From an uncultured delta proteobacterium (GTDB lineage Bacteria; Desulfobacterota; RBG-13-43-22): DNA of 64,000 bases. This document shows positions 15,351-30,089 of the stretch, piece by piece (position 1 is the first letter of the stretch; the number at the start of each line of letters is the position of its first letter). The stretch covers positions 772 through 64,771 of the forward strand of contig CAVQSS010000025.1 in the NCBI GenBank assembly GCA_963716045.1. The letters are read 5' to 3'. A program made the translations under genes and the position numbers. Below the pieces are notes generated by a model. That model was not told where the DNA came from. It was given only the letters and a program-made list of their open reading frames with translations, and made no database searches.

Positions 15351-16160
15351 GTGTTCAAGGATTTGATCGGAGATCTTTCGGAAATAAGATTATTCAACCT
15401 GGTAAAAAACCTGGTGGACGGAAAAAAGTCCGGACTGATGGCGGTCAAGGGTAAAGAGGCGGCGGAGTTATATCTTGAGGGGGGCCAGATCGTCCACGCC
15501 CGGACCGACACCCTGAACGGAGAAGAAGCGATCCGGCCCATTATGGACCTGGACAACGGACGGGTCACCTTCAATTGGCGGACGTCGCCCGAGGAACGCA
15601 CGGTGCGCCTGCCCACCGAGCAGATCATGTTGAATTGGTCCCAACGGGAGGAGGAGTGGAAGAGGATCAGGCAAACGGTGCCTTCCGCCGAGTGCGTCTT
15701 CCGCCTGGTGGTAGATAGCGGCGGCGAAGACCGGATGATTCCGGCCGGACAATGGGGCGTGCTGGCCCTGTGCAACGGGAGGCGAACCGTCTCCGAAATG
15801 GCCGGTCGGCTCGAGCGACCCGTATTGGATGTTTCGGGCACCCTCTGCGCTCTGGTGGAAAGAAGTCTGGTCGAAAGAACAGCGGCCGCCGATATTCCCC
15901 CAGCGGAGCTGAGGACCACGGTTGACGAGGCTTTTTTCGAGGCCGCCGAGACGGAACTCAAGAAGGTGGTGGGACCCATCGCTCGGATCATCCTGAACGA
16001 TACCCTGGCGGCATTTGAGGAATCCCGGGAGGCCTTCCCGAAGGATCGGGTGAAGAGTTTCATTTCCACGGTCTGCGACCAGATCGCGGAGGAGCCGAAA
16101 CGGGAAAAGTTCGGCAAGGCCATTTATGTCGCCTGGCTTTCTTCCTTTGAAACCAGTTAA
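15351..16160 (+). CDS. DUF4388 (PatA-N-like) domain protein
   Basis: GTG 15351 gives MFKDLIGDLSEIRLFNLVKNLVDGKKSGLMAVKG...LYLEGGQIVHA...GEEAI, the DUF4388 pattern. The ORF-track TTG start at 15300 is also possible. Confidence 0.7.
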   Translation: MFKDLIGDLSEIRLFNLVKNLVDGKKSGLMAVKGKEAAELYLEGGQIVHARTDTLNGEEAIRPIMDLDNGRVTFNWRTSPEERTVRLPTEQIMLNWSQREEEWKRIRQTVPSAECVFRLVVDSGGEDRMIPAGQWGVLALCNGRRTVSEMAGRLERPVLDVSGTLCALVERSLVERTAAADIPPAELRTTVDEAFFEAAETELKKVVGPIARIILNDTLAAFEESREAFPKDRVKSFISTVCDQIAEEPKREKFGKAIYVAWLSSFETS

Positions 16161-16185
16161 GCACTCAAAACCAGGAGGATCGATC

Positions 16186-17190
16186 ATGACGGAAATATCG
16201 AAGGGCGAGGGGGGCATTCCGGACCAAATCATGGGACCATTCAGACAGCGGATCGACCGGTTAGGGTTAAAGGGGACCCTGCTGCTGGGGATCTTCGTCC
16301 CCATTCTGATCGCCTTCCTGGTCATCTCAGTTCTGCTTTTCGTCGATGTGGGCCCGTTGGTCAGCATCCGGGCCCTCGGGTCCAACAGTCTGAAGGAACT
16401 GGGCGCCGCCAGTATCAAAGAATCCGTCGCTTCCCTCAACAAGCTGGGAGAGAAGATCATTCAGGAAAAAGCCGAGGGGGTGGCCCGCCAGATTGACATC
16501 TATCTCGAATCCCATCCGGGCCTGCCGGAGGCGGCCCTGGCCAACCAGACGCGCCTCCAGGAGATCGCCATCCAGCGGGTCGGTGAAACCGGCTATACGG
16601 CGGTTCACAACAATAGAGGGATCAACTATTTTCACGTCAACCCGAAAATCGTGGGAACCGACCTGCATAAGCTGGCCGGTAAAATGCCGGAATTCGTCAA
16701 GGTCATGGAAACGGGACTGAAAGGGGCTTCGGGCGGCTATTACCAATGGACGGACATCGATGGAAAGGTGCGGCCCAAGTACATGTTCAGCGCCCCGGTG
16801 GAAGGCACAAATCTGATCGTGGCCGCCACGACCTACATAGATGAATTCGGAAAACCGGCCGGCGCCATCCTGGCCAAGGTGGACCGGATGCAGGCCGCGT
16901 ACGCAGAGCGGTACAGAAACCGGTTCCTGATTTTCCTGGCCATCGTTCTGATCGACCTGGCCGTGCTGCTGGTGGTCATCTACGTCTTTTCGTCTTCCCT
17001 GGTCCGGCCGATCCGCCGCTTATCGGAGGCGGCCGATCGGATCAGTATGGGGGACCTGGAGGCGACCGTGAACGTGGAGGGGGAAGGAGAGGTCGCCCGG
17101 TTGGGACAGTCGATCGAGCGGATGCGGACCAGCGTTAAAACCGCCCTGGAGCGGCTGGAGAACCGACGACCGATAACCATTCGCAAATAA
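16186..17190 (+). CDS. Membrane sensor with Cache-like extracytoplasmic domain and a HAMP domain but no output domain
   Basis: ATG 16186 after AGGAGGA. TM1, a ~250-aa periplasmic region (YTAVHNNRGINYFH...YYQWTDIDGKVRPKYMF), then TM2. HAMP LVRPIRRLSEAADRISMGDLEATV. The protein ends ~40 aa later. Confidence 0.7.
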   Translation: MTEISKGEGGIPDQIMGPFRQRIDRLGLKGTLLLGIFVPILIAFLVISVLLFVDVGPLVSIRALGSNSLKELGAASIKESVASLNKLGEKIIQEKAEGVARQIDIYLESHPGLPEAALANQTRLQEIAIQRVGETGYTAVHNNRGINYFHVNPKIVGTDLHKLAGKMPEFVKVMETGLKGASGGYYQWTDIDGKVRPKYMFSAPVEGTNLIVAATTYIDEFGKPAGAILAKVDRMQAAYAERYRNRFLIFLAIVLIDLAVLLVVIYVFSSSLVRPIRRLSEAADRISMGDLEATVNVEGEGEVARLGQSIERMRTSVKTALERLENRRPITIRK

Positions 17191-17203
17191 AAGGAGGAAG
17201 GTT

Positions 17204-17818
17204 ATGAAAGGGCGTAACGGGCCGAAGTGGGCACTCCCCTTACTCGGGCTGACAGTCTTCCTGTTCTGTTTCTGTTTCGATGAACTGGTTTTCGGTCAGG
17301 GAAACCCCAAAGCCGCACAGGATACCCGGCCGGACCTTCCGTCCGACACGGATCAGCCACCGGCCATACCGGTGGGTGCCCTGACGATCCTCCGAACCGG
17401 GAACGGACGGGGGAAGGTGACAACCAGTCCCGCCGGGCCCTTCTTTAAGAAAGGGACGCTGGTGACCCTGTTAGCGCTTCCCGCCCCGAATTCCGTATTC
17501 GAGGGCTGGAGCGGAAACTGCACAGGATTCTCCCGCACCTGTACGGTCATCCTGTCAACCGAACGGACTGTCACCGCCAACTTTTCCCTGAAAACCTACA
17601 CGATCCAAGTCCGCCCCTCGATTAACGGGGTCATTTATCCATACGGGAATATAAAAGCAGGTCACGGGGAGAAGCGAAGGTTCCAGATTATCCCCCTGCC
17701 CGGCTACCGGGTTTCCGAGGTCCTCGTGGACAAGGTGGCGCAGGGGCCCATAAACTCCTATACTTTCAAGGAGGTCACGACCGACCATGTCCTGGAAGCG
17801 ATTTTTATAAAACAATAG
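17204..17818 (+). CDS. Secreted protein with divergent InlB B-repeat type domains
   Basis: Signal peptide present. GRGKVTTSPAG..FKKGTLVTLLALPAPNSVFEGWSGNCTG..RTCTVILSTERTVTANF, followed by a second repeat-like unit. Confidence 0.65.
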   Translation: MKGRNGPKWALPLLGLTVFLFCFCFDELVFGQGNPKAAQDTRPDLPSDTDQPPAIPVGALTILRTGNGRGKVTTSPAGPFFKKGTLVTLLALPAPNSVFEGWSGNCTGFSRTCTVILSTERTVTANFSLKTYTIQVRPSINGVIYPYGNIKAGHGEKRRFQIIPLPGYRVSEVLVDKVAQGPINSYTFKEVTTDHVLEAIFIKQ

Positions 17819-18057: not shown

Positions 18058-19195
18058 AACTAAGTTTTTTGGCCAGCCTCTTGGCCATGGCCACCACGGT
18101 AACCGACGGAGGCAGTCCCCAGGGTTCTGGTATGACCGTGGTGTCCATGCAATAGCAATTCTCTATCGGCGTCGACAGTTTCCGTCCAGGAGGCTGCCGA
18201 TCCGCACCGTCCCGCCGGGATGGGCGGCTATGGTGGTAGTCTTGAATAGTTTTTTCCGGTTAACCCCGGCCTTGACCAGGATTTCTTCGGCCAGGGCCGC
18301 CCCTTGGTCCAGTTTCTTTCGGGTTTCGGAATCGATGGGCTTGGAAAAGGAACCGTCGGGATTGATTTGACCGTCCAGACCGTCCCGCACCTTGATCATG
18401 ATGATCAGCGTCTTGTTGATTCCCGCCACCCTCGGGAGGGAAGCGATTCCTTTCGCGCCTGCGTGGGCCAAAAAACCGGCCAGGATGGTGGGCGAAAGGG
18501 TGAAGTCGGTCATCACGATCCCTTCTTCTTCCAGGTGAGCGCCGGCCGTCATGGGAATGTCGTGAATGGAACCCGGGATATTCGGAGGGTCCGCCGACAA
18601 ACCACAAGGGATCCGCAAAAAATCCTTGTCCGGCTTTATCCAGGCCGGCCCGCTGCAGGATGAAGCGGGTTGGCTTTCCCTCCGCCAGATAAAACAACTG
18701 TCTGGGCATGTATGTTCAACCGCCCTACAGAAGATTCGGCTTCGACCCCCACCGCCTTCCCGCCATCGACCAGCAGGCGGGTTACCCGGGTGTTGGTCAA
18801 TAGCTCCGCCCCCTGTTTCCGGGCCTCTTCCACAAATTCCCGCGCGGTCCACTTGGCCCCTTCCACAGGGCACCCCAGGGAGCACTTGCCGCAATTCGGC
18901 CGGCACTTTTCCGGACGAATCCATTTGTCCAGGGGTTTCCAGTCCAAGCCGGTTGCCACGGCGCCTTCCATTATTTTACGGGCGGCCGTCCCGATCAAAC
19001 GGTCCGGCAGGGGCTGAATGGGGATCTCCCTGAAAATTTCCTCAACTTCCTCGGTCAAGTCGATCCCGTATTTTTCTTTCAACCAGAGGGGAGGCTTAAA
19101 AGCCGTACCGCAGAAGACGACCGATGCTCCCCCCACAGTCTTGGGATGAAAGACCCAGGTGCCTTCTTGAGAAAAGGTGCAGTTTTTTTCATAAA
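18058..19195 (-). pseudogene. GMC-type FAD oxidoreductase pseudogene (5'-truncated, at least 3 frameshifts)
   Basis: Homologous segments lie in three frames:
- GGASVVFCGTAF...CGKCSLGCP...AQTVVLSGGG
- KPTRFILQRAGLDKAGQGFFADPLWFV
- HPGGTVRIGSLLDGNC
- IENCYCMDTTVIPEPWGLPPSVTVVAMAKRLAKKLS*
The N-terminal FAD-binding GxGxxG region is absent. Confidence 0.75.
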
Positions 19196-19450
19196 AATCC
19201 CCTTTAGGTTATTCTAATTAAGGCGATTTCTTGGTCAGCCTGCTGAAATCCCCCCTATATGATTCTGAATAGATCAGGGATTCAGATTTTCCAGGCTTAG
19301 GCGGTAAACCACACCTCCAATACCGCCGTCCTCCAAGCCTGGATCGAGGCAGCGGACATGACGGAAAGGGTGTGAAGTTCTCGATGCTACACGAAATACC
19401 ATGCCAGGGGCGGGCACCCTTGAAGCTTGAAAATCCACTTGGCCAAGTGA

Positions 19451-19515
19451 CTGTCATCTCAAGCGTTTCGTCAGCCTGTCATTCTGAGTGAAACGAAGAA
19501 TCTCGTCCTTCAAGG
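19451..19515. repeat. Family-2 repeat units (GTCAYYCTGAG core)
   Basis: CTGTCATCTCAAGCGTTTCGTCAGC followed by CTGTCATTCTGAGTGAAACGAAGAATCTCGTCCTTCAAGG. Related to the elements at 55131, 58469 and 60188. Confidence 0.7.
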
Positions 19516-19774
19516 AACCTGTTGTCGGTCCCTGACCGTTTTTTCTATTTTGGGAGGGTGGATTAAAAAGGGTTAACCGGCCGACATGGGTCCTTAGACG
19601 CCTGGGTGAAACTTTATTCCAGAAGGAGCGGGAGGAGGAGGTTACTTTCTCAGTTCACGGGACGGGATTAAAATGTTTTTATGTCTTCTATCAAAAATCT
19701 ATTAATAAGTCAAGATAAATTTACACAGGAAAGACATTTTATCCTACAGATTGGGGTTGGCCTGAACGATCCGA

Positions 19775-19862
19775 TCACCGGGGAGTCACGGGCAGGTGCA
19801 GCAGGTAGGCGGTGGGATGTGGGATGGTTTGAGGGTTACTGAAAAGTTCCTGTGATCGGGGG
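19775..19862 (-). pseudogene. Orphan remnant of a secreted-protein C-terminus carrying the AYLLHLPV..R* tail
   Basis: Encodes PRSQELFSNPQTIPHPTAYLLHLPVTPR*. About 80% nt identity over ~45 nt to the 3' end of the beta-helix gene (24335-24380). Lies in the same frame immediately after the TGA stop of gene 19863-20054. Confidence 0.55.
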
Positions 19863-20054
19863 TCAGCGCTGTTCCGCCAAGGAATTGTTCGCCGAAACGG
19901 AACTTCTGATCAATTCGATCTTCCGGGGTAAAAAGGACTTGATATCCTCCCTGGTCTTCTCATAACAGGGGCGACAGATCCCATGGGAGATCTTATCCTC
20001 TCCGGGAACCCGGCTGATCTCCCGATTGCACCAGGAACATATTACGATAAACAT
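19863..20054 (-). CDS. Small zinc-ribbon-like protein (CxxC...CxxC)
   Basis: 63 aa. MFIVICSWCNREISRVPGEDKISHGICRPCYEKT. Confidence 0.5.
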   Translation of the reverse strand: MFIVICSWCNREISRVPGEDKISHGICRPCYEKTREDIKSFLPRKIELIRSSVSANNSLAEQR

Positions 20055-20332
20055 GATACTTGCTCTTTCCCTCCGGGTCTCAATTTAACAGCATATAGGG
20101 GTAAATAAATAAAATCATACTACATATAGCGTTTTTTTACCAGAAAAAAGCAAGATCGATGCCAGCAACACATTTTACTTTAAAAAGGAGTTAACTGCCT
20201 GATCCGCTTAAAGTAAAAACACTATTCGGTTCATCCGGCCCTGATTTTCCCCGGATGGAATGTATGGTTGTTCCTCCAGGGGGTGATGTCAAAATTATGC
20301 TTCTTGGGGAGAAAACGGAAGGATCTACTGTT

Positions 20333-23300
20333 TCAGTGGGCGCGGGGCTGTCGGTAGTACCACTGGAGTTGTCCGGGGCTGCTGTCTTCGTCCACGTTTT
20401 CCTGGTCAACAGTCTTCTTTCCCCGGCCCGGAGGCAGAACCTCTTTCAGTTTCCACTGCCCGTCCAGGCGGCCGAAGGTCCAGTATTCTTCGAAGGGCGT
20501 GACGTATTCCTGTTCACTCAGGGCCTGATCGCCTTTGCGGATGAAACGCTGGGCATGAGCGCTGATCCGCACCGTAAATTCATCCCGGGTGCTGTCCCCG
20601 AAGTTGCGGACCAGGAGCAGTTCCACCTTACGAACGCAGAGGTTGCGGTATTCCACGCGGACGCCCTCACTCTTCCAGTAATTCACCTGGGTTTTCAGAT
20701 CCTCGGCCACCTTTGGGAAAAGCTCGGCGGCGGCGACCCGGGCCGGATCGCCGGTTTCGCGGGCCAGGTAAATATCGAGGAAAACTTGACGAGCCCTTTC
20801 AAGCATCCCGTTTCGATTCCAGAGTTTGTCGGTCTGAGACAAGAAGTTTATCATTCGGTCGATGCGGGTGGCTTTCTGTTCCACCTCTTTTTCCAGCCAG
20901 GGACCCGCCTTCCCTTGGGGGACAGCCTCTTCTCCATAAATACCTTTCAGCGTTTCGTCGGTCAGCATCTCGGCAAAGTTCTCATCCTTAAGGATATCCG
21001 ATTCTCCGGCCTGCTCGATCTCCCGGAGCAGCCAGCGTCCGTTCATCATCTGAAAGGTCCAGAACTCTTGAAAAGGGGCCGGGGTCTGATCCCCCCGAAG
21101 GAATTTTCCCGAGCGGTCGTCCTGATAGTAATCCCGAGCCGAGGCGGTGATTAGGGCGGTGAACTCCCTTTGATCCGCCTTCTCCGCGTAGCGGACATTC
21201 ACCAGGTCGATCCCTGCCACCTTCAGGTCGTCGATTCGGTTGATCTCGTGGTTCCGGGCCAGCCCCTGGAGCTGGGCCGTGTGCTGGGTAAAAAGGTCCG
21301 GCAGCAGTAGTGCCCCCATGGGTCCGTATTCGCGCTTTCCCCAACACTCCTGCAGCTTGAGAAACGTGGCTTCAGCCAGATGGCGCAGCGTTTCCGGGGA
21401 GACGGTGGAGTCCTGCCGGCTCAGGAAAGCCAGCAGTTTTTCGGTCTTCTCCGCCTTGGGGGTGATTTGATTGCGCGGGTAGACGAAATCGAGGTTTTCA
21501 CCTTTCTTCTTGGATATCGAGAATTTGATGGCATGAATTATAATTGGCAATAGGATCATAAAAAAAATAAGAGCAAAACAGAACAGAAAAAATCCCGTCC
21601 AAGTGAGATCTTGGCCGCTGCCCCCGGAGGATGAGCTGGACCCCGAGCTGCGGGACCCGCCCCCCCCTTTGTTATGAGTCACAAACCCGGCGGCCAGAAA
21701 CGTATTCGGCCAGCCGACGGACAGATTGAAGACCGGCTGCGGACGCTCCTCCCAGCGGGTTCTGAGTACCGTGGCCGCCTGGAGGGCGTCGTTTTTCCAG
21801 ACGAGGACCTGCTGTCCGGGATACAGCCTCCCGGCGGGAACGAAGGCTCCGTCGGGGCAACCCACCGGATGATCCACCGTGGCCCGCAGGAGTCCGGCAT
21901 CGGTTTCAACGGTCCGAACTAAAGCCCGCGTGCTGAAGATTTTCGCTATCCGGGTAAATACCATCTTTCCCTGGGGATCTACGGCCTGCACGTGACTCGC
22001 TTTAGAAAGTCGCTCGATGGGGATCAGGCCCTGAAGAGTGCCGATCGGGGTCCCGGACGGCAGGCAGCCGCCCCCCTTGTTGTGGACCACCACGCCTTCG
22101 GCGATGAAAGTATGGGGACCGGCAACCTCGAGATTGAAGACGAGTCCTTCCTTAGGGCCGGAATCCACCCCCCGAACTTTTTGGGCGACCAATCGGCCTT
22201 CTTTCCAGCGGGTGATCCGGTCTCCCGGACGGAGATCCCCGGCCGGGCGGAAACGCCCTTCTCCCAGGCTTATGGGGTGGTCTTCGGTGGCCGGGAGGGA
22301 ACCCCCGGGGGTCTTTATTATCAGCAGGGGGCTTTTATTTATCAGGATGGTTTTCACCAGGCTTCGCACCGTACGCCCTTCCGGGTCAATGGAGAGGACT
22401 TCGTCTCCGGCAGCCAGCGCTTCGATGGGCCGCCGTCCTTTTGGAGTGGCAATCCCGGTTCCGGCCGGGAAGCATCCCCCGCCCTTATTATGGACGGCCA
22501 GGCCGCCGGCGAAAAAGGTATGGGGTTGATCGGTCTGGAGATTATAAACCTGGACCCGTTCCCGGACCCGCTCCAGGGAGACGATCCGCTGTTCAGCCAG
22601 CCACTTCCCGTCAAAAGCCAGAATGGTGTCGCCCGGGGTGAGGGCTTCGACCGTCTTGAAAGTCCCCCGGCCGACATAGAAAGGATGCTCCGCGGTCACC
22701 CGCAGGGTGACCCGATCGGTTCTCATCAGGAAATATTCGTCCGCCTGGAGGCGAAGCACGGACAGGGTGCGGGTGGGTACCAGGTGTCCATCGGGTTTGA
22801 AGGCCCAAAGGGCATCACCCGGCTTCACGGCACTGATGCGCGTTTCCGTGCCGTCCGCTCTAAGGATGGGGCTGTCGGGCAGGAAACAGCCCTTGTTGTG
22901 CAGGACCAGATCCCCGGAGATAAAGGTCCCTCCCGGGCTGACCAAAAGATTGTAAGCCGGGCGCTTTCCCTGAAAACGATGAATCGATTGGACCGCCTCG
23001 GCCTTTAGCGCTCCGGCGCTGAACAGGAAAACCCGGTCCCCCGGAAAAAGGAAACCGGCCTGACGATAGGTTCCGGGGGCCACCATGATCGGATGTTCGG
23101 GGGTAACCCGCACCCGGGTTCCCCCCGCGGATAGCTCCAGGTATTCTTCGGGGACCACCCGGACAACCGCCCGGACTTTCGCTTCCCGGAGTCGGCCGGA
23201 AGCTACAGTCCAGACCGGGTCGTCCACCCCCAGCCTTTCAATGGCCACCGGACCTTTCAGGGTCCTAATCGGAGTGCCCTCTTCCAGGCAGCCGCCCCCG

Positions 23301-23371
23301 CCCCGGGCCCAGGAAAGAGCCGGGCTGAGCAACAGGAGAAACAACCCCGCCAGTCCGATAAGCCGGTTCAT
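20333..23371 (-). CDS. Signal peptide + four tandem Hint (Hedgehog/intein-type) domains + TM helix + two Tim44-like domains
   Basis: 1012 aa.
- Hint modules: nt 22895-23290, 22487-22888, 22079-22474 and 21671-22066.
- Each module starts G-C-(L/F), has T-x-x-H-P (TPEHP/TAEHP/TEDHP/TVDHP) and ends (L/V/T)HN.
- Linkers are K-G(1-3).
- TM helix WTGFFLFCFALIFFMILLPIIIHAI at 21527-21601.
- The C-terminal ~380 aa has two units ending ...F.E.WTF.....W.L.E (Tim44/NTF2-like pattern). Confidence 0.85.
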   Translation of the reverse strand: MNRLIGLAGLFLLLLSPALSWARGGGGCLEEGTPIRTLKGPVAIERLGVDDPVWTVASGRLREAKVRAVVRVVPEEYLELSAGGTRVRVTPEHPIMVAPGTYRQAGFLFPGDRVFLFSAGALKAEAVQSIHRFQGKRPAYNLLVSPGGTFISGDLVLHNKGCFLPDSPILRADGTETRISAVKPGDALWAFKPDGHLVPTRTLSVLRLQADEYFLMRTDRVTLRVTAEHPFYVGRGTFKTVEALTPGDTILAFDGKWLAEQRIVSLERVRERVQVYNLQTDQPHTFFAGGLAVHNKGGGCFPAGTGIATPKGRRPIEALAAGDEVLSIDPEGRTVRSLVKTILINKSPLLIIKTPGGSLPATEDHPISLGEGRFRPAGDLRPGDRITRWKEGRLVAQKVRGVDSGPKEGLVFNLEVAGPHTFIAEGVVVHNKGGGCLPSGTPIGTLQGLIPIERLSKASHVQAVDPQGKMVFTRIAKIFSTRALVRTVETDAGLLRATVDHPVGCPDGAFVPAGRLYPGQQVLVWKNDALQAATVLRTRWEERPQPVFNLSVGWPNTFLAAGFVTHNKGGGGSRSSGSSSSSGGSGQDLTWTGFFLFCFALIFFMILLPIIIHAIKFSISKKKGENLDFVYPRNQITPKAEKTEKLLAFLSRQDSTVSPETLRHLAEATFLKLQECWGKREYGPMGALLLPDLFTQHTAQLQGLARNHEINRIDDLKVAGIDLVNVRYAEKADQREFTALITASARDYYQDDRSGKFLRGDQTPAPFQEFWTFQMMNGRWLLREIEQAGESDILKDENFAEMLTDETLKGIYGEEAVPQGKAGPWLEKEVEQKATRIDRMINFLSQTDKLWNRNGMLERARQVFLDIYLARETGDPARVAAAELFPKVAEDLKTQVNYWKSEGVRVEYRNLCVRKVELLLVRNFGDSTRDEFTVRISAHAQRFIRKGDQALSEQEYVTPFEEYWTFGRLDGQWKLKEVLPPGRGKKTVDQENVDEDSSPGQLQWYYRQPRAH

Positions 23372-23402
23372 AAATGCCTTCGCACCGATTGAATCACCGG
23401 GA

Positions 23403-23672
23403 TCAATGCAAGGCGGCCAGGATCCCGCCCAGTACCGCGGCGGCGATGACGATACTCACCCCCAGGATGGCCGAGCCCACGATACGCCCATAGTATTCCC
23501 CCACCGCGCCATTGCCGCGGACAATTTCCTTCTGTTCGTCGATGTTGGGGGTCAGTCGATCGATGAGCCCCGGGAGAATCAGCGAGGAGGCGATCACCAG
23601 CGCCATCCCGATCACGCCCCCGATTACTGAAAAAACCATTGACCAGCCGATATTCTGCAGCGTTTCAACCAT
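23403..23672 (-). CDS. DUF350 family small membrane protein
   Basis: 89 aa, 3 hydrophobic helices. IVRGNGAVGEYYGRIVGSAILGVSIVIAAAV resembles the DUF350 motif. Confidence 0.65.
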   Translation of the reverse strand: MVETLQNIGWSMVFSVIGGVIGMALVIASSLILPGLIDRLTPNIDEQKEIVRGNGAVGEYYGRIVGSAILGVSIVIAAAVLGGILAALH

Positions 23673-23748
23673 GGCAGTCCCTTTCCTAATCAGCTACCTC
23701 CGGCGATGCCGGAGGCTTGAAATTTACCGCCTGACAACAAAGCCCCCG

Positions 23749-24303
23749 TTAAAACTTCCCTTGAGGAACCACGCGTTCCGCGGCGGCTTCCACCTGAAAA
23801 AAAGGCTCGGCCTGAAAACCGAAAATACTGGCCACGATATTGCTTGGGAACATCTCCACCCGGTTCTTGTAGCGCATGGCGGCGTCGTTATAGTACTGCC
23901 GGGAAAAGCCGATTTTGTTCTCGGTGTTGGAAAGCTCCTCCTGCAGGGCCAGGAAGTTCTGATTGGCCTTGAGGTCCGGGTAGGCCTCGGCCACGGCAAA
24001 AAGGGAACGCAGGGCCGAGGTCAAGACATTTTCGACCTCGGCCCGTTGCGCCACCCCGCCGGTGAAGTCGACGGCCTGCTGCCGGGCCTGGACCACCGCC
24101 TCCAGGGTCTGTCTTTCGTGGCCCGCGTAGCCCTTTACCGTTTCAATCAAGTTGGGGATCAGGTCATAACGCCGCTTGAGCTGGACGTCGATCGAACTCC
24201 AGGCGCTCTTGACCTCGTTCCTTCCCCGGACCAGCGCGTTGTAAGGAGCGATCACCAGGAAACCCAGGACAACCAACAATACCAGGATAACGATAAGAGA
24301 CAT
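23749..24303 (-). CDS. LemA family protein
   Basis: N-terminal TM. YNALVRGRNEVKSAWSSIDVQLKRRYDLIPNLIETVKGYAGHERQTLEAVVQAR is the LemA signature. Confidence 0.9.
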   Translation of the reverse strand: MSLIVILVLLVVLGFLVIAPYNALVRGRNEVKSAWSSIDVQLKRRYDLIPNLIETVKGYAGHERQTLEAVVQARQQAVDFTGGVAQRAEVENVLTSALRSLFAVAEAYPDLKANQNFLALQEELSNTENKIGFSRQYYNDAAMRYKNRVEMFPSNIVASIFGFQAEPFFQVEAAAERVVPQGKF

Positions 24304-24334
24304 CAGGGGCCCTCCTCTTACGTAAAATTACTCT

Positions 24335-26494
24335 TTATCGGAGAATCACGGGCAGATGGAGCAGGTAGGCGGTGGAAGTGAAAACCGCCGAAAATTCCGA
24401 CGTGCCCCGGGCATCGGAGGAGGTGGCCGTCAGGTAGGGGTAAGCCAGGCCGCTTATCTCCAAAACATAATTTCCGGCAGCGTCGGCCACGGTGCCCCCC
24501 ACATAGACTTCCCCTTCCCCGTCGGGGACCCGGCTGTTGAAGATCTGCACCGCGCAGCCGTAGCAGGCCTTCCCTGAAATACGGATGGAACCGAAGGTGG
24601 TGCTTTGGATGACCGGGGCCGGGATGCCGCTGTTGGCCCCGTTGGTCAGGTGGATGCCCAGGCCGCTGTTGGCGTAGATGCGGTTGCGGGTGATCAGGTT
24701 GCCGGTGGCGTTCGGGGTGTCCACCTGCACGCCGTCTCCGCCGTTGAAGGCGATGATGTTGTTGGGGCCGACGAAATTCGATTGGGCCACTGGGCCGAAA
24801 TAGATTCCGTCATCCAGGTTGCCCAAGGGATTCAGCCCCAGATGATCCGTTCCGATATAATTCCCTTTGATCGTGTAAAACCGGCAGATATCGGGCCCGC
24901 CCTCCAGCCATATCCCAACAAATTGATTCCCCGATATAAGGTTGGCCGTACCGGGTGCGTCCCCCCCAATCAGGTTGTTGGCAGCCCGCGGGCCTAGAAA
25001 GAGGCCCGTCTGGTTGCCCACGGCTGTCTTTCCGCCGGCATCGGTCCCGATGTAGTTTCCGGAGATGACGTTATTGGTGACGTCCGCGCCGGTTCCCCAG
25101 ATTATAATGCCTTGGAGGAGATTGCCGGATATGATATTCCTGTGGGCCGGCAGGGCGCCCCCAATGGTGTTGTGGCTGCTGCTGATGTCGATTCCTCTCT
25201 GGTTGGGCAGGGGCGTTACCCCGTCGGCTGCCAGGCCGATGGTATTTCCCCGGATGGTGTTGGTATCGGCAGCGAGGGTGATTCCGACCTGATTTCCAGA
25301 AATGATATTGCCTGACCCCGGGCTGTCCCCTCCGATTACATTGTCGCCGCCGGGCGCCTCCAGGAAAATTCCTGTGTTATGTCCCCGGGCCTCCCGACCT
25401 TCAGGATCTGTGCCGATATAATTGCCGGAAATGAAATTGGAATTGGCTCCATTTGAAATAATACCGATGACGCTATTGCCGGATATTATGTTTCTTTCCC
25501 CCGGGGTCCCCCCTCCAATTACGTTGTGATTGGCCCCGTCCAGGAGGTAAATACCGACATCCTGATTCCCCACGCCTCCCAATCCGGAACCGGTCAGGCC
25601 GATAAAATTCCCCTGGATCAAATTCCTGCTGGTCTCGACCCCCTCCAGGAGAATGCCCAATTGTCCATTTCCCGAGATGAGGTTCCGCTCCGCTTCGGTA
25701 CCACCGCCGATCCTGCTGTGCTGCGCGCCGCCGAAAATGTGAATGCCGTGATTCGTGTTAGCGAGGGAGACCCCGCCGCCGGCATTGACGCCGATATAGT
25801 TCCCGGAAACGGTGTTCGTATCCGTACCGGTTCCGTCGATGCGAATTCCCGACTGGTTGTTCCCGGAAATGATGTTCCTATCGGCGGGGCTCTTCCCGCC
25901 GATAACATTTGCCGAGGCTCCTGAAGCAATGGAAATTCCATTACCACCGTTACCCAGATCGGCATTGCCGGTGGAATCCGTTCCAATGTAATTGCCGGAA
26001 ATGATATTGCCGGTGGCTCCGGCCCCGGTAATGATAATCCCGTGCAGAGCAAAATTGTTGATGATCAGTCCTTTGATCGTATTCCCGGAAGAGGTTATAT
26101 TTAACCCGACACTAACGCCTGCACTAGACCCGTTTATCCTGACCCGCAGCACGGCCGGGGAACCTGCCGTAGCCGGCGAGGCCCCGCTTTGGGTATAGCC
26201 GTCTATGGTGGTGCCGTTGTCTGTTAACGCCGGAAGGGAAGAAGTAGGGGTTATAGTTTTTATAAATAAGGGATCGGGGATATTGAACGTAATCGTATCG
26301 GGTCCGGGGTTATCATTGGCATTGATGATGGCTTGCCGGAGGGAACCTGCCCCGCTGTTGAGGAGGGTTGTTACCACGTAATTAGCCGACCAGGCGTTTG
26401 GGCAATAAGACAGGAAAGAGAAGATTAGACCAGAAAACAGGAAAAACCCAAACGAAGAAGATCGTTCTGCAGCAGAATTTCGGAACCGAAACAT
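24335..26494 (-). CDS. Secreted right-handed parallel beta-helix repeat protein (PbH1/NosD-like)
   Basis: ATG 26494 after GGAGG. Signal peptide present. N-terminal NSGAGSLRQAIINANDNPGPDTITFNI. More than 15 repeats of the ISGNYIGTD..G....GN..GI type. C-terminal ...TSEFSAVFTSTAYLLHLPVILR*. Confidence 0.85.
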   Translation of the reverse strand: MFRFRNSAAERSSSFGFFLFSGLIFSFLSYCPNAWSANYVVTTLLNSGAGSLRQAIINANDNPGPDTITFNIPDPLFIKTITPTSSLPALTDNGTTIDGYTQSGASPATAGSPAVLRVRINGSSAGVSVGLNITSSGNTIKGLIINNFALHGIIITGAGATGNIISGNYIGTDSTGNADLGNGGNGISIASGASANVIGGKSPADRNIISGNNQSGIRIDGTGTDTNTVSGNYIGVNAGGGVSLANTNHGIHIFGGAQHSRIGGGTEAERNLISGNGQLGILLEGVETSRNLIQGNFIGLTGSGLGGVGNQDVGIYLLDGANHNVIGGGTPGERNIISGNSVIGIISNGANSNFISGNYIGTDPEGREARGHNTGIFLEAPGGDNVIGGDSPGSGNIISGNQVGITLAADTNTIRGNTIGLAADGVTPLPNQRGIDISSSHNTIGGALPAHRNIISGNLLQGIIIWGTGADVTNNVISGNYIGTDAGGKTAVGNQTGLFLGPRAANNLIGGDAPGTANLISGNQFVGIWLEGGPDICRFYTIKGNYIGTDHLGLNPLGNLDDGIYFGPVAQSNFVGPNNIIAFNGGDGVQVDTPNATGNLITRNRIYANSGLGIHLTNGANSGIPAPVIQSTTFGSIRISGKACYGCAVQIFNSRVPDGEGEVYVGGTVADAAGNYVLEISGLAYPYLTATSSDARGTSEFSAVFTSTAYLLHLPVILR

Positions 26495-26631
26495 ACGCAC
26501 CTCCGGGAAAAGATGGCTGTTAATCCGCAATAAAACCTCAAAGCAAAGCTTTTTCAGGGAAGGATGGGTGAAATCATATCAGGAAAGGGGATTTTAGGTC
26601 AAAGGTTTCCTTTGATTGCGGCAGTGTCGGA

Positions 26632-26826
26632 TTACAGTTCGAATCTTTTCCCGGTGATCGGCCTTTTTGGGGCGGAGGTGGGTTTGAGGTTCCCAAACAG
26701 TTCCTGCGAAAATTTAAGAAATTCCAGGTATTCATCCATGGAGAGGGGACGGCGCTCCCTCCTCAGGCGGTTCTGGATTTCGATATCCTCGGAAGTGATT
26801 TTGATATCCCGTTCGAAATCAATCAC
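26632..26826 (-). CDS. Small hypothetical protein (64 aa)
   Basis: GTG start overlaps the stop of the upstream small ORF (GTGATTGA). MIDFERDIKITSEDIEIQNRLRRERRPLSMDEYLEFLKF. No family recognised. Confidence 0.4.
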   Translation of the reverse strand: MIDFERDIKITSEDIEIQNRLRRERRPLSMDEYLEFLKFSQELFGNLKPTSAPKRPITGKRFEL

Positions 26827-26974
26827 TAGATCTTCCCTCCAGCTCGTTGAGTAGATCCAGGGACGAATATTTCAGAAAATAACTTCGGATTTCCTCCCGA
26901 TCCAATCCCCTTTGCCTTAACAGATGGACGAGGTCTTCCCGGTCCAGCGCAGACCTTTCGGGGTTGGCAGTCAT
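26819..26974 (-). CDS. Small hypothetical protein (51 aa)
   Basis: MTANPERSALDREDLVHLLRQRGLDREEIRSYFLKYSSLDLLNELEGRSSD*. Found by hand (below the ORF-track cutoff). Weak RBS. Confidence 0.3.
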   Translation of the reverse strand: MTANPERSALDREDLVHLLRQRGLDREEIRSYFLKYSSLDLLNELEGRSSD

Positions 26975-27067
26975 GATCTTGGATTGTTTGATGATAAAGA
27001 AACCGATTTACCTTTCAAATGAGAAGAGTATAGAATAAGCCAAATGAGGGGGCAAGGAGAAAACGCC

Positions 27068-28195
27068 ATGGAAGATTCGAACGTCTATCAAAGGTTGGCC
27101 GAACACTTGGGGAATGTCGGCATGGGCTACCCCATCCGGGAGACCCTGCTGGAAATCCTGAAAGAGAATCTTAACCCGGCCGAAGCGGAAATCGCTCTGG
27201 CGCTTCCTGCCGGGGTGATCCCTTTTTCGACTGTCAGTGTTTCCGAAATAAAGACCCGAGTGGCCATGTCTCCGGAGGAACTGGAATCGGCCCTGGACCG
27301 TCTGGCCGAAAAAGGGCTTTTGTATTTGGGGCCGACCGCGACCGGTGAAAAGGGGTACGCCCTGTTGCAGGTGGGATTCGGGTTCCCTCAGACCTTTTTC
27401 TGGAAAGGTGAAGACACGCCGCACGCCCGCAAGATGGCGCTCCTGGTGGCGAAGTACTTTAACCGGGAGGTTACCTCGGAGGCCTACGGCAGCCGAAGCA
27501 AGCATTACCGCTACATCCCGGTTGCCAAAGCGATCAAGCCTGATCTGCAGGCGGTCTTCCCGGTTCAACTTATGGAGCAGGTCATAACCAAGGCCAGGCG
27601 TATCGCCGTGGCGCACTGTCCCTGCCGCGTCTCGTATCGACTGGTGGGTCGAGGCTGCGAGCATCCCACCGAAGTCTGCCTGAAATTCGACGAGTTGGCC
27701 GACTTCGTCATCGATAAAGGTCTGGCCCGTGAGCTCACCAGGGAAGAGGCGCTCGAAGTGATCCGGGTAAGCGAGGAGGCCGGACTGGTTCATTTCGTGG
27801 ACAATGCCGAAGGCGAAATCAAGCACAACTGCAACTGTTGCGGCTGCGCCTGCTGGAATGTGGGCAACATTCGGAGGAGAAAAATTCCGCGGGATGCCAT
27901 CATGGCCACGTACTTTATGAGGGAAACCGAATCCGGGGGATGTTCGGGTTGCGGCGAGTGCGCTACCCTTTGTCCGGTCGAGGCCGTGCGAATGGAAGAC
28001 GGCGTACCGATCATCGATCCCGATTGGTGCATCGGTTGCGGTGTCTGCGCCACGGTGTGCCCCTCCGAGTCCGTGATCTTAAAGGGGAGAGAGGACCGGA
28101 TCGGGGTCAAGCCCGCCTCAACTTTCCGAGAATTGCATCAAAGGATATTGGAGGAGAAAAAGGCGAAGACCCAACAAGGGCCTGCTGGAAAATAA
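27068..28195 (+). CDS. Fe-S protein with Cys-rich motifs and a C-terminal 2x[4Fe-4S] ferredoxin domain
   Basis: ATG 27068, 7 nt after AGGAGA. Motifs HCPCR, CNCCGCACW, CSGCGECATLCP and CIGCGVCATVCP. Confidence 0.75.
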   Translation: MEDSNVYQRLAEHLGNVGMGYPIRETLLEILKENLNPAEAEIALALPAGVIPFSTVSVSEIKTRVAMSPEELESALDRLAEKGLLYLGPTATGEKGYALLQVGFGFPQTFFWKGEDTPHARKMALLVAKYFNREVTSEAYGSRSKHYRYIPVAKAIKPDLQAVFPVQLMEQVITKARRIAVAHCPCRVSYRLVGRGCEHPTEVCLKFDELADFVIDKGLARELTREEALEVIRVSEEAGLVHFVDNAEGEIKHNCNCCGCACWNVGNIRRRKIPRDAIMATYFMRETESGGCSGCGECATLCPVEAVRMEDGVPIIDPDWCIGCGVCATVCPSESVILKGREDRIGVKPASTFRELHQRILEEKKAKTQQGPAGK

Positions 28196-29255: not shown

Positions 29256-30089
29256 CTAACCCTGTTTCCTTAATGCCCGCGCATAGGCAAAGACGGCCTG
29301 GACATAATTTTCGCAGTGGTTGTAGGCGTATACGGCTTCCGTCTTTTTAACGGGATCTTTCGGGGACCAGCCGAAGGACTTCAGGTAGTTGGCCATGCTG
29401 GCGAAGGCATCGGCCAGGTTATAGAGGTCAACCTCCCCGTCGCCGTTGCCGTCCGCCCCGTATTTTCTGAAGGAGGAAGGCACAAACTGCGGTATGCCGA
29501 AGGCCCCGGCCCAGGAGCCCTTCACCGCGAGCGGGTCTTTTTTCTGTTCCCGGCACATGAGCAGCAGATGACCGAGTTCTCCTTCGGCCCAGGCGGAACG
29601 CCGGTTCTCGATGAGGGCCATGGTGAGCAGGCTGTTGAAAACGGAATGGTTTCCCGTAAACCGGCCGAAATTGGTCTCGATGCGGAGAATGGACACCAGG
29701 ATCTCCCGGCCCACCCCGGAGGCGGCTTCGATTTTCTGGAGGATATGCCGGTTGTCGCGGAGCACAACCTTGCCCTGCTTCACCGACTTTTGGGTGAGCA
29801 GCCCAAATCCCCGTCCCGTGTAGTTCAGGCCCTTCCCCTTACGCTCGACGATCTCCGGGTAGAGCGTCACCCGGTTGTCTGAAAAAACTTGGGAAAGTTC
29901 CTTTTCCGACAGGCCGCGGGCCTGGAGCCTTAACCGCAGTTCGTCCAGCTTTTCGCCGTAAGGCTGAACCGCACTCGCCAGAGTGGAAGTACCGGTAGCG
30001 ACCAGCAGGGAAATGCCCAGCAAAAAACCGACGATTCGAGATGTCCTCAGCAATGAACCCTCCTTTTTCTGAAAATGCCGGCCGATCAA
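29256..30089 (-). CDS. Lytic murein transglycosylase (MltB/SLT_2 family)
   Basis: GSWAGAFGIPQFVPSSFRKYGADGNGDGEVDLYNLADAFASMANYLKSFGW. N-terminal signal/anchor present. Confidence 0.85.
   Translation of the reverse strand: MIGRHFQKKEGSLLRTSRIVGFLLGISLLVATGTSTLASAVQPYGEKLDELRLRLQARGLSEKELSQVFSDNRVTLYPEIVERKGKGLNYTGRGFGLLTQKSVKQGKVVLRDNRHILQKIEAASGVGREILVSILRIETNFGRFTGNHSVFNSLLTMALIENRRSAWAEGELGHLLLMCREQKKDPLAVKGSWAGAFGIPQFVPSSFRKYGADGNGDGEVDLYNLADAFASMANYLKSFGWSPKDPVKKTEAVYAYNHCENYVQAVFAYARALRKQG

Follow-up and report, generated by a model that had tools for sequence, protein, structure and literature searches.

Positions 20333-26494 of a 64,000-nucleotide stretch of DNA from an uncultured delta proteobacterium (contig CAVQSS010000025.1; this whole stretch is called the window below) raise the question of whether four closely spaced genes on the minus strand make up one envelope operon, and of what four tandem Hint domains might do in the membrane protein that one of these genes encodes. 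An earlier note, made from the sequence alone, had proposed a single transcription unit coding for a secreted beta-helix protein, a LemA protein, a DUF350 protein and a protein with four Hint modules and two Tim44-like domains (the Hint/Tim44 protein). Its four open reading frames (ORFs), with spacers of 31, 76 and 31 nt and AT-rich outer flanks, were reproduced by our ORF calls and GC profile (0.55-0.65 within the genes versus 0.41-0.48 on both outer flanks), and its domain calls by Pfam matches for the Beta_helix, LemA, Tim44 and Hint families (Table 1). The comparisons described here point to an ancient inner-membrane pair, formed by the DUF350-like protein and a protein with two Tim44-like domains (Tim44x2), which we think, with some reserve, is matured or switched by a self-excising periplasmic array of bacterial intein-like (BIL) domains.

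Gene neighbourhoods of the Hint/Tim44 gene

Homologs of the Hint/Tim44 protein number 889 at E <= 1e-5, hundreds of homologs being full-length, and carry database labels such as 'Hint domain-containing' or 'TIM44-like domain-containing' and nothing further. A scan of genomes, one for each species, detected relatives in 264 species-level genomes; 80 loci with their flanks were taken from Deltaproteobacteria (Syntrophales, Desulfarculales and Desulfobacterales), Planctomycetota including Brocadiia, Verrucomicrobiota, Lentisphaerae, Nitrospirota, Gammaproteobacteria and the cultured Legionella massiliensis, in all at least seven phyla. When all ORFs of these loci were searched with the four window proteins, the DUF350-like gene turned up immediately upstream of the Hint/Tim44 gene and in the same orientation at 70 of the 71 loci having upstream sequence, which upholds the earlier idea of a conserved, uncharacterised membrane gene cluster. 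LemA, present in 43 of the 80 loci overall, is kept upstream of DUF350 in 40 of the 42 delta loci with room for it, but occurs in none of the 24 loci of the Planctomycetes-Verrucomicrobia-Chlamydiae (PVC) group, Nitrospirota, Gammaproteobacteria and other non-delta lineages, so that it is not part of the core. No beta-helix homolog was found in any of the 80 loci. A lack of synteny elsewhere, which the earlier note would have counted against its proposal, does not hold for three of the four genes: the DUF350-like and Hint/Tim44 genes are syntenic across phyla and LemA within delta lineages, and it is the beta-helix gene alone that lacks such company. Unbiased clustering of the flank ORFs of the 80 loci likewise returned DUF350 and LemA as the only widely recurrent real genes, the exceptions being an extracytoplasmic function (ECF) sigma/anti-sigma pair and a DUF4185 gene in one Syntrophaceae subgroup. 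At the seven non-delta loci examined the neighbours vary by locus and frequently lie on the other strand; the annotated ones are unrelated housekeeping genes. On the evidence of gene adjacency, we take the DUF350-like protein to be the partner that accompanies Tim44x2 proteins universally, and LemA to be a lineage-specific third gene of the cluster that stands outside this core pair.

The DUF350-like protein is strongly conserved (70% mean identity across phyla) and contains an invariant loop, TP-x-x-D/N-E-x-K-E-I-x-R-G-N-x-A-x-x-x-Y-x-G-R. The window protein scores 24.1 bits against PF03994, just under the cut-off of 26, and spans half of the Pfam model, and all 26 tested members of its family match PF03994 at E <= 0.01 (best 2.9e-7). 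Alignment with E. coli YjfL by hhalign gave a weak match (E 0.015) in which the TP..E...N.A motif is aligned, and we refer to the protein as a half-size YjfL. The earlier note had given it three transmembrane (TM) helices; AlphaFold2 (AF2) predicts two long helices, 2-40 and 45-88, in agreement with hydropathy, and hence two TM helices. A search with the DUF350 profile returned only close 89-aa relatives, and therefore yielded no alternative gene contexts. E. coli YjfK (DUF2491), the neighbour of YjfL, was considered as a hidden Tim44-like protein and rejected (hhalign probability 0.1%). The LemA protein has an N-terminal TM anchor and is assigned to its family by PF04011 (198.3 bits, E 7.4e-59) and by PDB 2etd (E 1.3e-37); against the MamQ model (NF040966) it scores 79.7 bits, below the equivalog cut-off of 250.

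The Hint array and its Hint-less relatives

The Hint/Tim44 protein consists, in this order, of a signal peptide, four Hint units of 132-134 aa each, a Gly/Ser linker, a TM helix, two Tim44-like domains and a C-terminal tail. Pfam Tim44 (PF04280) matches it in two stretches with 79.7 bits against a gathering cut-off of 29.6, and PT-HINT (75.6 bits, the best-scoring Hint family), Hint_2, Hint and Intein_splicing each exceed their cut-offs; the NCBIfam Tim44/TimA model (NF033779) reaches 33.9 bits against a cut-off of 80, so the protein lies below the threshold of that adaptor subfamily. In the AF2 model (mean predicted local distance difference test score, pLDDT, 75.5) the domains are confident and the linkers flexible. 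The best Foldseek matches of the Hint part are BIL2 of the Tetrahymena BUBL locus (6y75, 6tmm) and mini-inteins (target TM-score 0.85-0.87), together with a C. thermocellum BIL (2lwy) and the Hedgehog autoprocessing domain (1at0), and the C-terminal domain of yeast Tim44 (3qk9) was matched with probability 1.00 and a target TM-score of 0.60. A sequence search of the PDB with a profile of the Tim44x2 region gave no significant match, Tim44 being recovered there by fold comparison only. Because of the signal peptide, the single TM helix (~591-613) and the positive-inside rule (KFSISKKK), we propose that the Hint array is extracytoplasmic and the Tim44-like domains are cytoplasmic, the orientation that the earlier note had also predicted. 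The signal peptide cleavage motif before the array, (S/A)W(A/G) followed after the cut by RGGGG, is conserved among the 207 complete homologs. In alignments of homologs the C-terminal Tim44-like part is the most conserved region of the protein, and the conserved acidic/aromatic tail that follows it is likely to be a docking motif, to judge from its invariant columns.

Statistics of the Hint units were drawn from 609-630 units of these 207 complete proteins, which carry one, two, three, four, five or six units in 19, 35, 76, 74, 1 and 2 cases, respectively. Cys1 is found in each of the four window units and throughout the ~630 homologous units, and the residue before it (-1) is Gly in every unit, within GGG, NKG or KGG. 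The TxxH of block B is present in 626 of 630 units and the C-terminal His-Asn in 609 of 609; positions +1/+2 are Lys-Gly in 609 units, with Cys, Ser or Thr never at +1, and consecutive units are joined by KG, KGG, KGGG or KGGGGG linkers. In 81% of the units the catalytic Cys is the sole Cys. With Cys1, TxxH and His-Asn near-invariant, the units look catalytically competent, which speaks for the autoprocessing array suspected in the earlier note. Since they combine an N-terminal Cys and a C-terminal His-Asn with no +1 Cys/Ser/Thr, they are, by sequence definition, type A BIL domains. They lack two features of canonical class 1 inteins, Cys/Ser/Thr at +1 being absent (Lys is invariant) and the block F Asp (F:4) being mostly Asn.

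The units have individual identities within the array. Paralogous units of the window protein are 29-39% identical to each other, and units of the same type in other species 46-60% on average; the predominant order, units 1-2 followed by 3 and/or 4, is kept in 49 of 61 complete locus proteins. Given that orthologous units are more alike than paralogous ones and that their order is predominantly fixed, we regard them, by sequence comparison, as old paralogs with positional identity and as neither recent nor selfish copies. Unit 2 (CFLPDS...) is the most conserved, and both of the single-Hint sequences that were read carry a unit of this type. The N-extein of single-Hint members is a pentapeptide, RAGGG in both of those sequences, and every complete member analysed of this Hint-carrying family, which occurs in 264 species-level genomes, contains at least one Hint unit.

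To look for relatives outside the Hint clade, a profile of the Tim44x2 region was compared with 1.84 billion representative proteins, giving 194 clusters at E <= 1e-30 and 823 at E <= 1e-10. Close 'Tim44-only' entries of ~330-550 aa were rejected as Hint-less relatives: their N-termini lie inside the TM helix or a Hint unit, and they are therefore truncated gene calls. Some distant relatives do lack the Hint units altogether. P0482 and P0489 consist of a signal peptide, a stub of ~10 aa, a TM helix and two Tim44-like domains, and P0502 has a Gly-rich tail (ARGGGGSGGSRSGGGG...) between its signal peptide and the TM helix and two Tim44-like domains. The genes of P0482 and P0502 are directly preceded by a gene for an 87-aa DUF350-like homolog, 38-49% identical and with the same loop motif. 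The P0482 contig is taken to be archaeal because of its gene for an RFC small subunit (461 bits, cut-off 303). As these Hint-less genes, with signal peptide, TM helix and Tim44x2, also have an 87-aa DUF350 gene upstream, the gene comparison indicates that the DUF350/Tim44x2 pairing predates the Hint array. The sequences flanking the array, ARGGGG and GGGGSRSSGS, resemble the uninterrupted Gly-rich tail of P0502, the same tail (ARGGGGSGGSRSGGGG) that the protein encoded at locus L083 has. The only single-Tim44 relative looked up (P0480, ~290 aa) is without a DUF350 partner, and for an ORF upstream of a Cys-rich Tim44x2 relative at locus L089 a DUF350-like identity was rejected by comparison.

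A proposed self-excising array and its rivals

We favour, as probable but no more than that, an ancient DUF350/Tim44x2 inner-membrane pair that is matured or switched by a self-excising periplasmic BIL array. Its core would be the 89-aa, two-TM DUF350-like protein together with a bitopic protein whose two cytoplasmic Tim44-like domains would bind membrane or lipid. Within a large clade of bacteria, the latter's periplasmic N-terminal stub, short and Gly-rich, would have gained 1-6 type A BIL domains, and in deltaproteobacterial lineages a LemA gene would have been added upstream. After Sec export and cleavage of the signal peptide between SWA and RGGGG, each Hint unit would fold in the periplasm; an N-S acyl shift would then produce a Gly(-1)-Cys1 thioester, Asn cyclisation would cut the C-terminal Asn-Lys bond and, since there is no +1 Cys/Ser/Thr, the thioester would be resolved by hydrolysis or by an amine, namely the freed alpha-amine or the epsilon-amine of the +1 Lys. 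The array would leave by cleavage or ligation, and the product would be a TM-Tim44x2 protein with a short Gly/Lys-rich stub resembling the tail of P0502. Because the reaction is single-turnover and needs a free thiol, this irreversible step might act, at the membrane's outer side, as a maturation timer or as a switch that responds to redox, pH or metals. It is from the sequences that we infer the occurrence of processing, the thioester-resolving agent and the physiological role.

That protein splicing can be conditional is well established for inteins. Type A BILs, which have the intein-type C-terminal His-Asn and no +1 nucleophile, mostly cleave; where they splice, the N-terminal thioester is attacked by the amine that Asn cyclisation has released (Amitai 2003 and Dassa 2004, as reviewed in PMC4031507). 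In BIL2 the thioester is resolved by a Lys epsilon-amine to give an isopeptide, and the N-extein goes to Lys amines of other proteins (PMC8616854). For the units described here, the unhindered Gly at -1 and the invariant Lys at +1 would favour amine-directed resolution. The physiological theme, by analogy, is probably membrane or envelope homeostasis, because Tim44-type domains bind membranes, MamQ, a member of the LemA family, is required for magnetosome membrane formation, and ECF/zf-HC2 genes accompany the cluster at five loci. DUF350/YjfL proteins, for their part, are found in PspA-associated operons (PMC11237479), a further indirect hint at this theme.

Several points weigh against this reading. 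The block F Asp, which helps to coordinate splicing in class 1 inteins, is replaced by Asn in 578 of 609 units (it is Asp in 21), and this substitution could slow or uncouple the reaction steps. If the array just removes itself, there is no obvious reason for keeping position-specific paralogs in 1-6 copies. The argument for a physiological role is a weak one, of guilt by association, in which the ECF link comes from just five related loci. The positive-inside rule (R26, R28 and K32 after the TM helix) puts the LemA domain in the cytoplasm, and published predictions put it outside. Rather unlikely in our estimate is a bolder form of the proposal, in which the Gly(-1)/Lys(+1) junctions would mark a domesticated periplasmic BIL array that performs serial, ATP-independent, Lys-directed ligation or conditional self-excision, a chemistry undescribed in bacteria, and that irreversibly switches the DUF350/Tim44x2 module of Bacteria and Archaea on redox, pH or metal cues.

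The conservation of the units also has to be read against explanations that need no such role. The Hint units could be non-processing and form a stable spacer or binding ectodomain in the periplasm, or be thioester warheads tethering the protein covalently to meso-diaminopimelate (m-DAP) of peptidoglycan or to phosphatidylethanolamine: position-specific paralogs in variable copy number would suit a ruler or scaffold, Asn for Asp at F:4 may damp the reaction, and BIL2 does move its N-extein onto Lys amines of other proteins. We nonetheless consider this unlikely, given that the near-perfect Gly-Cys, TxxH and His-Asn sets argue that both bond-breaking steps are used, and that tethering through the pentapeptide N-extein of a single-Hint member would attach almost nothing. 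The uninterrupted Gly-rich tail that Hint-less relatives carry at the array site, the copy number of 1-6 and the mini-intein size and motifs of the units would all be expected of selfish mini-inteins that splice tracelessly from a Gly-rich tail and have no host function; yet units of 132-134 aa have no homing endonuclease domain, the invariant +1 Lys rules out class 1 splicing, the unit order is predominantly conserved with orthologs closer than paralogs across phyla, at least one unit is present in every complete Hint-clade protein analysed, and the units lie in an exported segment and not in the conserved catalytic site of a cytoplasmic protein, all of which makes selfish elements distinctly improbable. 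That PT-HINT is the best-scoring Hint family recalls polymorphic toxins, in which the domain releases a C-terminal effector, and we would give this reading almost no weight, since a TM helix and two Tim44-like domains follow the array and no toxin does, the C-terminal part is the most conserved and not a polymorphic one, the flanks hold neither recurrent immunity-like or secretion genes nor any recurrent downstream gene, and PADLOC returned a sub-threshold intein-motif match only.

The view that one functional envelope operon comprises all four genes, the beta-helix gene with its secreted product included, is very doubtful, although the genes share a strand, spacers of 31, 76 and 31 nt and AT-rich flanks, and although the 31-nt spacer before LemA is too short for a promoter. 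Beyond the missing homologs at the 80 loci, the evidence comes from a close relative (locus L081) whose Hint/Tim44 protein is 91% identical. There, LemA directly follows a divergent Fer4 (4Fe-4S protein) gene, and the beta-helix homolog (69% identical) lies with its 64-aa ORF 7.5 kb downstream of the Hint/Tim44 gene, apart from the cluster. Upstream of LemA, only ~31 nt, essentially the ribosome-binding site (RBS), are common to the two genomes; ~95 nt adjoining the Fer4 gene are also common to the window and the Fer4-LemA spacer of L081. Because the block sits 7.5 kb away in so close a relative, where LemA comes directly after Fer4, sequence comparison identifies the 64-aa ORF/beta-helix block as a recent, local insertion into the LemA leader. 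A promoter-like TTGAAA-16-TATCAT within the ~95 nt is a candidate for the ancestral promoter of the LemA operon, and since this site, shared with L081, now lies upstream of the inserted block, read-through into LemA is plausible here and co-transcription of all four genes in this genome is possible.

Set beside known systems, the favoured self-excising array on a DUF350/Tim44x2 pair is made of known component domains, and a full-text literature search found no description of the architecture, of the DUF350-Tim44x2 pairing or of the LemA link. What appears to be new is that an exported segment holds a cargo-less tandem BIL array joined through Gly/Lys junctions, and also the fusion of this array to a double Tim44-like module and the ancient pairing with a half-size DUF350 protein. 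With type A BILs and BIL2 the units share the Hint fold, N-terminal Cys, TxxH, His-Asn and lack of a +1 Cys/Ser/Thr, with type A BILs the placement in non-housekeeping proteins (here in an exported segment), and with the Tetrahymena BUBL locus, whose BIL2 is the top Foldseek match, the tandem arrangement in one polypeptide. Unlike in BILs and BUBL, the 1-6 units here are separated by nothing but K-G(1-5) linkers, without intervening cargo domains; residue -1 is always Gly, +1 always Lys and the block F Asp has mostly become Asn, and the array shares its polypeptide with a TM helix and two Tim44-like domains and is paired with a DUF350 gene. Class 1 mini-inteins (Mtu RecA, Npu DnaB and Ssp DnaB) are similar in size, fold and blocks A, B, F and G; by contrast, the present units have no +1 nucleophile, interrupt no host active site, are extracytoplasmic and show fixed positional orthology where inteins occur sporadically. 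As in Tim44/TimA proteins, an NTF2-like fold follows helices at the inner membrane, on its cytoplasmic/matrix side, but here the domain is doubled, comes after an ectodomain with a cleavable signal peptide, and scores below the TimA cut-off, and no link to protein import is known for the family. The DUF350-like protein probably belongs to the same Pfam family as the YjfL/DUF350 proteins of PspA- and polyamine-associated operons and is, like them, a small polytopic protein in membrane-stress-type operons; those described have four or eight TM helices (four in E. coli YjfL; PMC11237479), whereas here there is one two-TM repeat of half the size, with no PspA, YjfK, YjfM or YjfC genes nearby. Finally, LemA has the N-terminal TM anchor and helical LemA domain of its family (2etd; MamQ of magnetosome islands), and differs from MamQ in its score below the equivalog cut-off and in its DUF350 and Hint/Tim44 partners, which were not found in the literature searched.

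Hint/intein chemistry is mostly known from cytoplasmic selfish inteins, from Hedgehog and from toxin release. Here as many as six units that look catalytically intact stand in a row in the exported portion of a membrane protein of housekeeping type, and their order is conserved across several phyla; if the proposal is true, this would clearly be autoprocessing that has been domesticated for the bacterial envelope. The Gly-1/Lys+1 junction is unusual and directly testable by mass spectrometry, and the system is experimentally accessible because a cultured carrier, Legionella massiliensis, exists. It also offers an entry point to three widespread and poorly understood families, DUF350, Tim44-like and LemA.

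Further features of the window and of related loci

The coordinates of the genes, protein segments and sequence elements are collected in Table 1. The hairpin in the LemA-DUF350 spacer has a similar counterpart in L081 and none in more distant loci, and the RBS 3' of it, GGAAAGGGA, is widely conserved. An Rfam scan of 19000-27500 at E <= 0.1 returned no RNA elements, and PADLOC gave no meaningful match to a defence system.

Table 1. Features of the Hint/Tim44 cluster and of related loci; positions refer to the window unless another locus is named.
Feature	Position	Strand	Basis or remark
Beta-helix gene	24335-26494	minus	ORF call
LemA gene	23749-24303	minus	ORF call
DUF350-like gene, 89 aa	23403-23672	minus	ORF call
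Hint/Tim44 gene, 1012 aa	20333-23371	minus	ORF call; bitopic protein
Signal peptide, residues 1-22	23306-23371	minus	Hydropathy; cleavage between LSWA and RGGGG
Hint unit 1, residues 28-159	22895-23290	minus	CLEEGT...VTPEHP...AYNLLV...LVLHN then KG
Hint unit 2, residues 162-295	22487-22888	minus	CFLPDS...VTAEHP...VYNLQT...AVHN then KGGG
Hint unit 3, residues 300-431	22079-22474	minus	CFPAGT...ATEDHP...VFNLEV...VVHN then KGGG
Hint unit 4, residues 436-567	21671-22066	minus	CLPSGT...ATVDHP...VFNLSV...VTHN then KGGGGSRSS
Gly/Ser-rich juxtamembrane linker (568-590) and TM helix (~591-613), then KFSISKKK	21533-21670	minus	Hydropathy, AF2
Tim44-like (NTF2-like) domain 1 with leading helices, residues ~633-790	21002-21475	minus	Pfam 650-787; AF2; Foldseek 3qk9
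Tim44-like domain 2, residues ~836-979	20435-20866	minus	Second Pfam Tim44 stretch; NCBIfam 827-975, below cut-off; AF2
Acidic/aromatic C-terminal tail, ENVDEDSSPxQLQWYYRQxRA	20336-20434	minus	Invariant alignment columns
64-aa ORF	26632-26826	minus	88% identical to L081:20264-20458, directly upstream of the beta-helix homolog there
Promoter-like TTGAAA-16-TATCAT	26991-27018	minus	Within the ~95 nt common with L081; consensus match only
Promoter-like TTGACC-18-TATGAT with TG	26573-26602	minus	Upstream of the beta-helix gene; consensus match only
GC-rich 7-bp hairpin CCTCCGG-CATCG-CCGGAGG	23697-23715	minus	LemA-DUF350 spacer
Hint-less pairs of DUF350 and signal peptide-TM-Tim44x2 genes	L084-L086 4580-6190; L083 437-2135		L084 archaeal
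ECF sigma/anti-sigma genes at related loci	~1.2-2.4 kb upstream of the Hint/Tim44 gene	same strand	
DUF4185 gene at related loci	~60-225 nt downstream of the Hint/Tim44 gene		

At five Syntrophaceae-type loci (L018, L019, L027, L060 and L078) a gene for a zf-HC2/DUF2275 anti-sigma factor lies directly upstream of LemA-DUF350-Hint/Tim44 on the same strand, and an ECF sigma factor gene is present in four of the five, L078 ending at a contig edge. A DUF4185 gene is found 3' of the cluster at several Syntrophaceae-type loci and also at L014 and L016. L045 (7352-10598) is the only locus with LemA directly before the Hint/Tim44 gene, at a gap of 68 nt and with no DUF350 gene between them. At L009, L010, L023, L038 and L041 the Hint/Tim44 frame is broken and its longest ORF starts late; L009, L010, L023 and L041 come from 'MFD' assemblies. 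These broken frames are probably assembly frameshifts, of the kind that would account for many of the truncated 'Tim44-only' entries.

Around the cluster in the window, 18163-19136 (minus) contains two overlapping ORFs, one of them matching the N-terminal half of GMC oxidoreductases, and the pair resembles a GMC oxidoreductase gene that has been frameshifted or has decayed. A 63-aa ORF at 19863-20054 (minus), 278 nt 3' of the Hint/Tim44 gene, has a zinc-ribbon-like CxxC...CxxC spacing and zero Pfam matches; L081 has an NMT1/ABC transporter cluster in its place. Envelope-related neighbours at 16126-17818 and 29256-30089 (a Cache/HAMP sensor fragment, a secreted InlB B-repeat-like protein and an SLT_2 lytic transglycosylase) are not kept beside the cluster in other genomes.

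The beta-helix protein is secreted, and its helix is right-handed (Pfam Beta_helix, E 6.6e-14). Its start at the ATG at 26494 is supported by the first 20 residues, which are identical in the close relative's homolog, and a TTG at 26530 is possible. The 64-aa ORF and the beta-helix gene correspond as one moving block between the two genomes (window 24335-26826, minus, versus L081:20264-22768). The C-terminus of the protein is hydrophobic and conserved, STAYLL(H/R)LP(V/L)ILR, and from its sequence could be a sorting signal.

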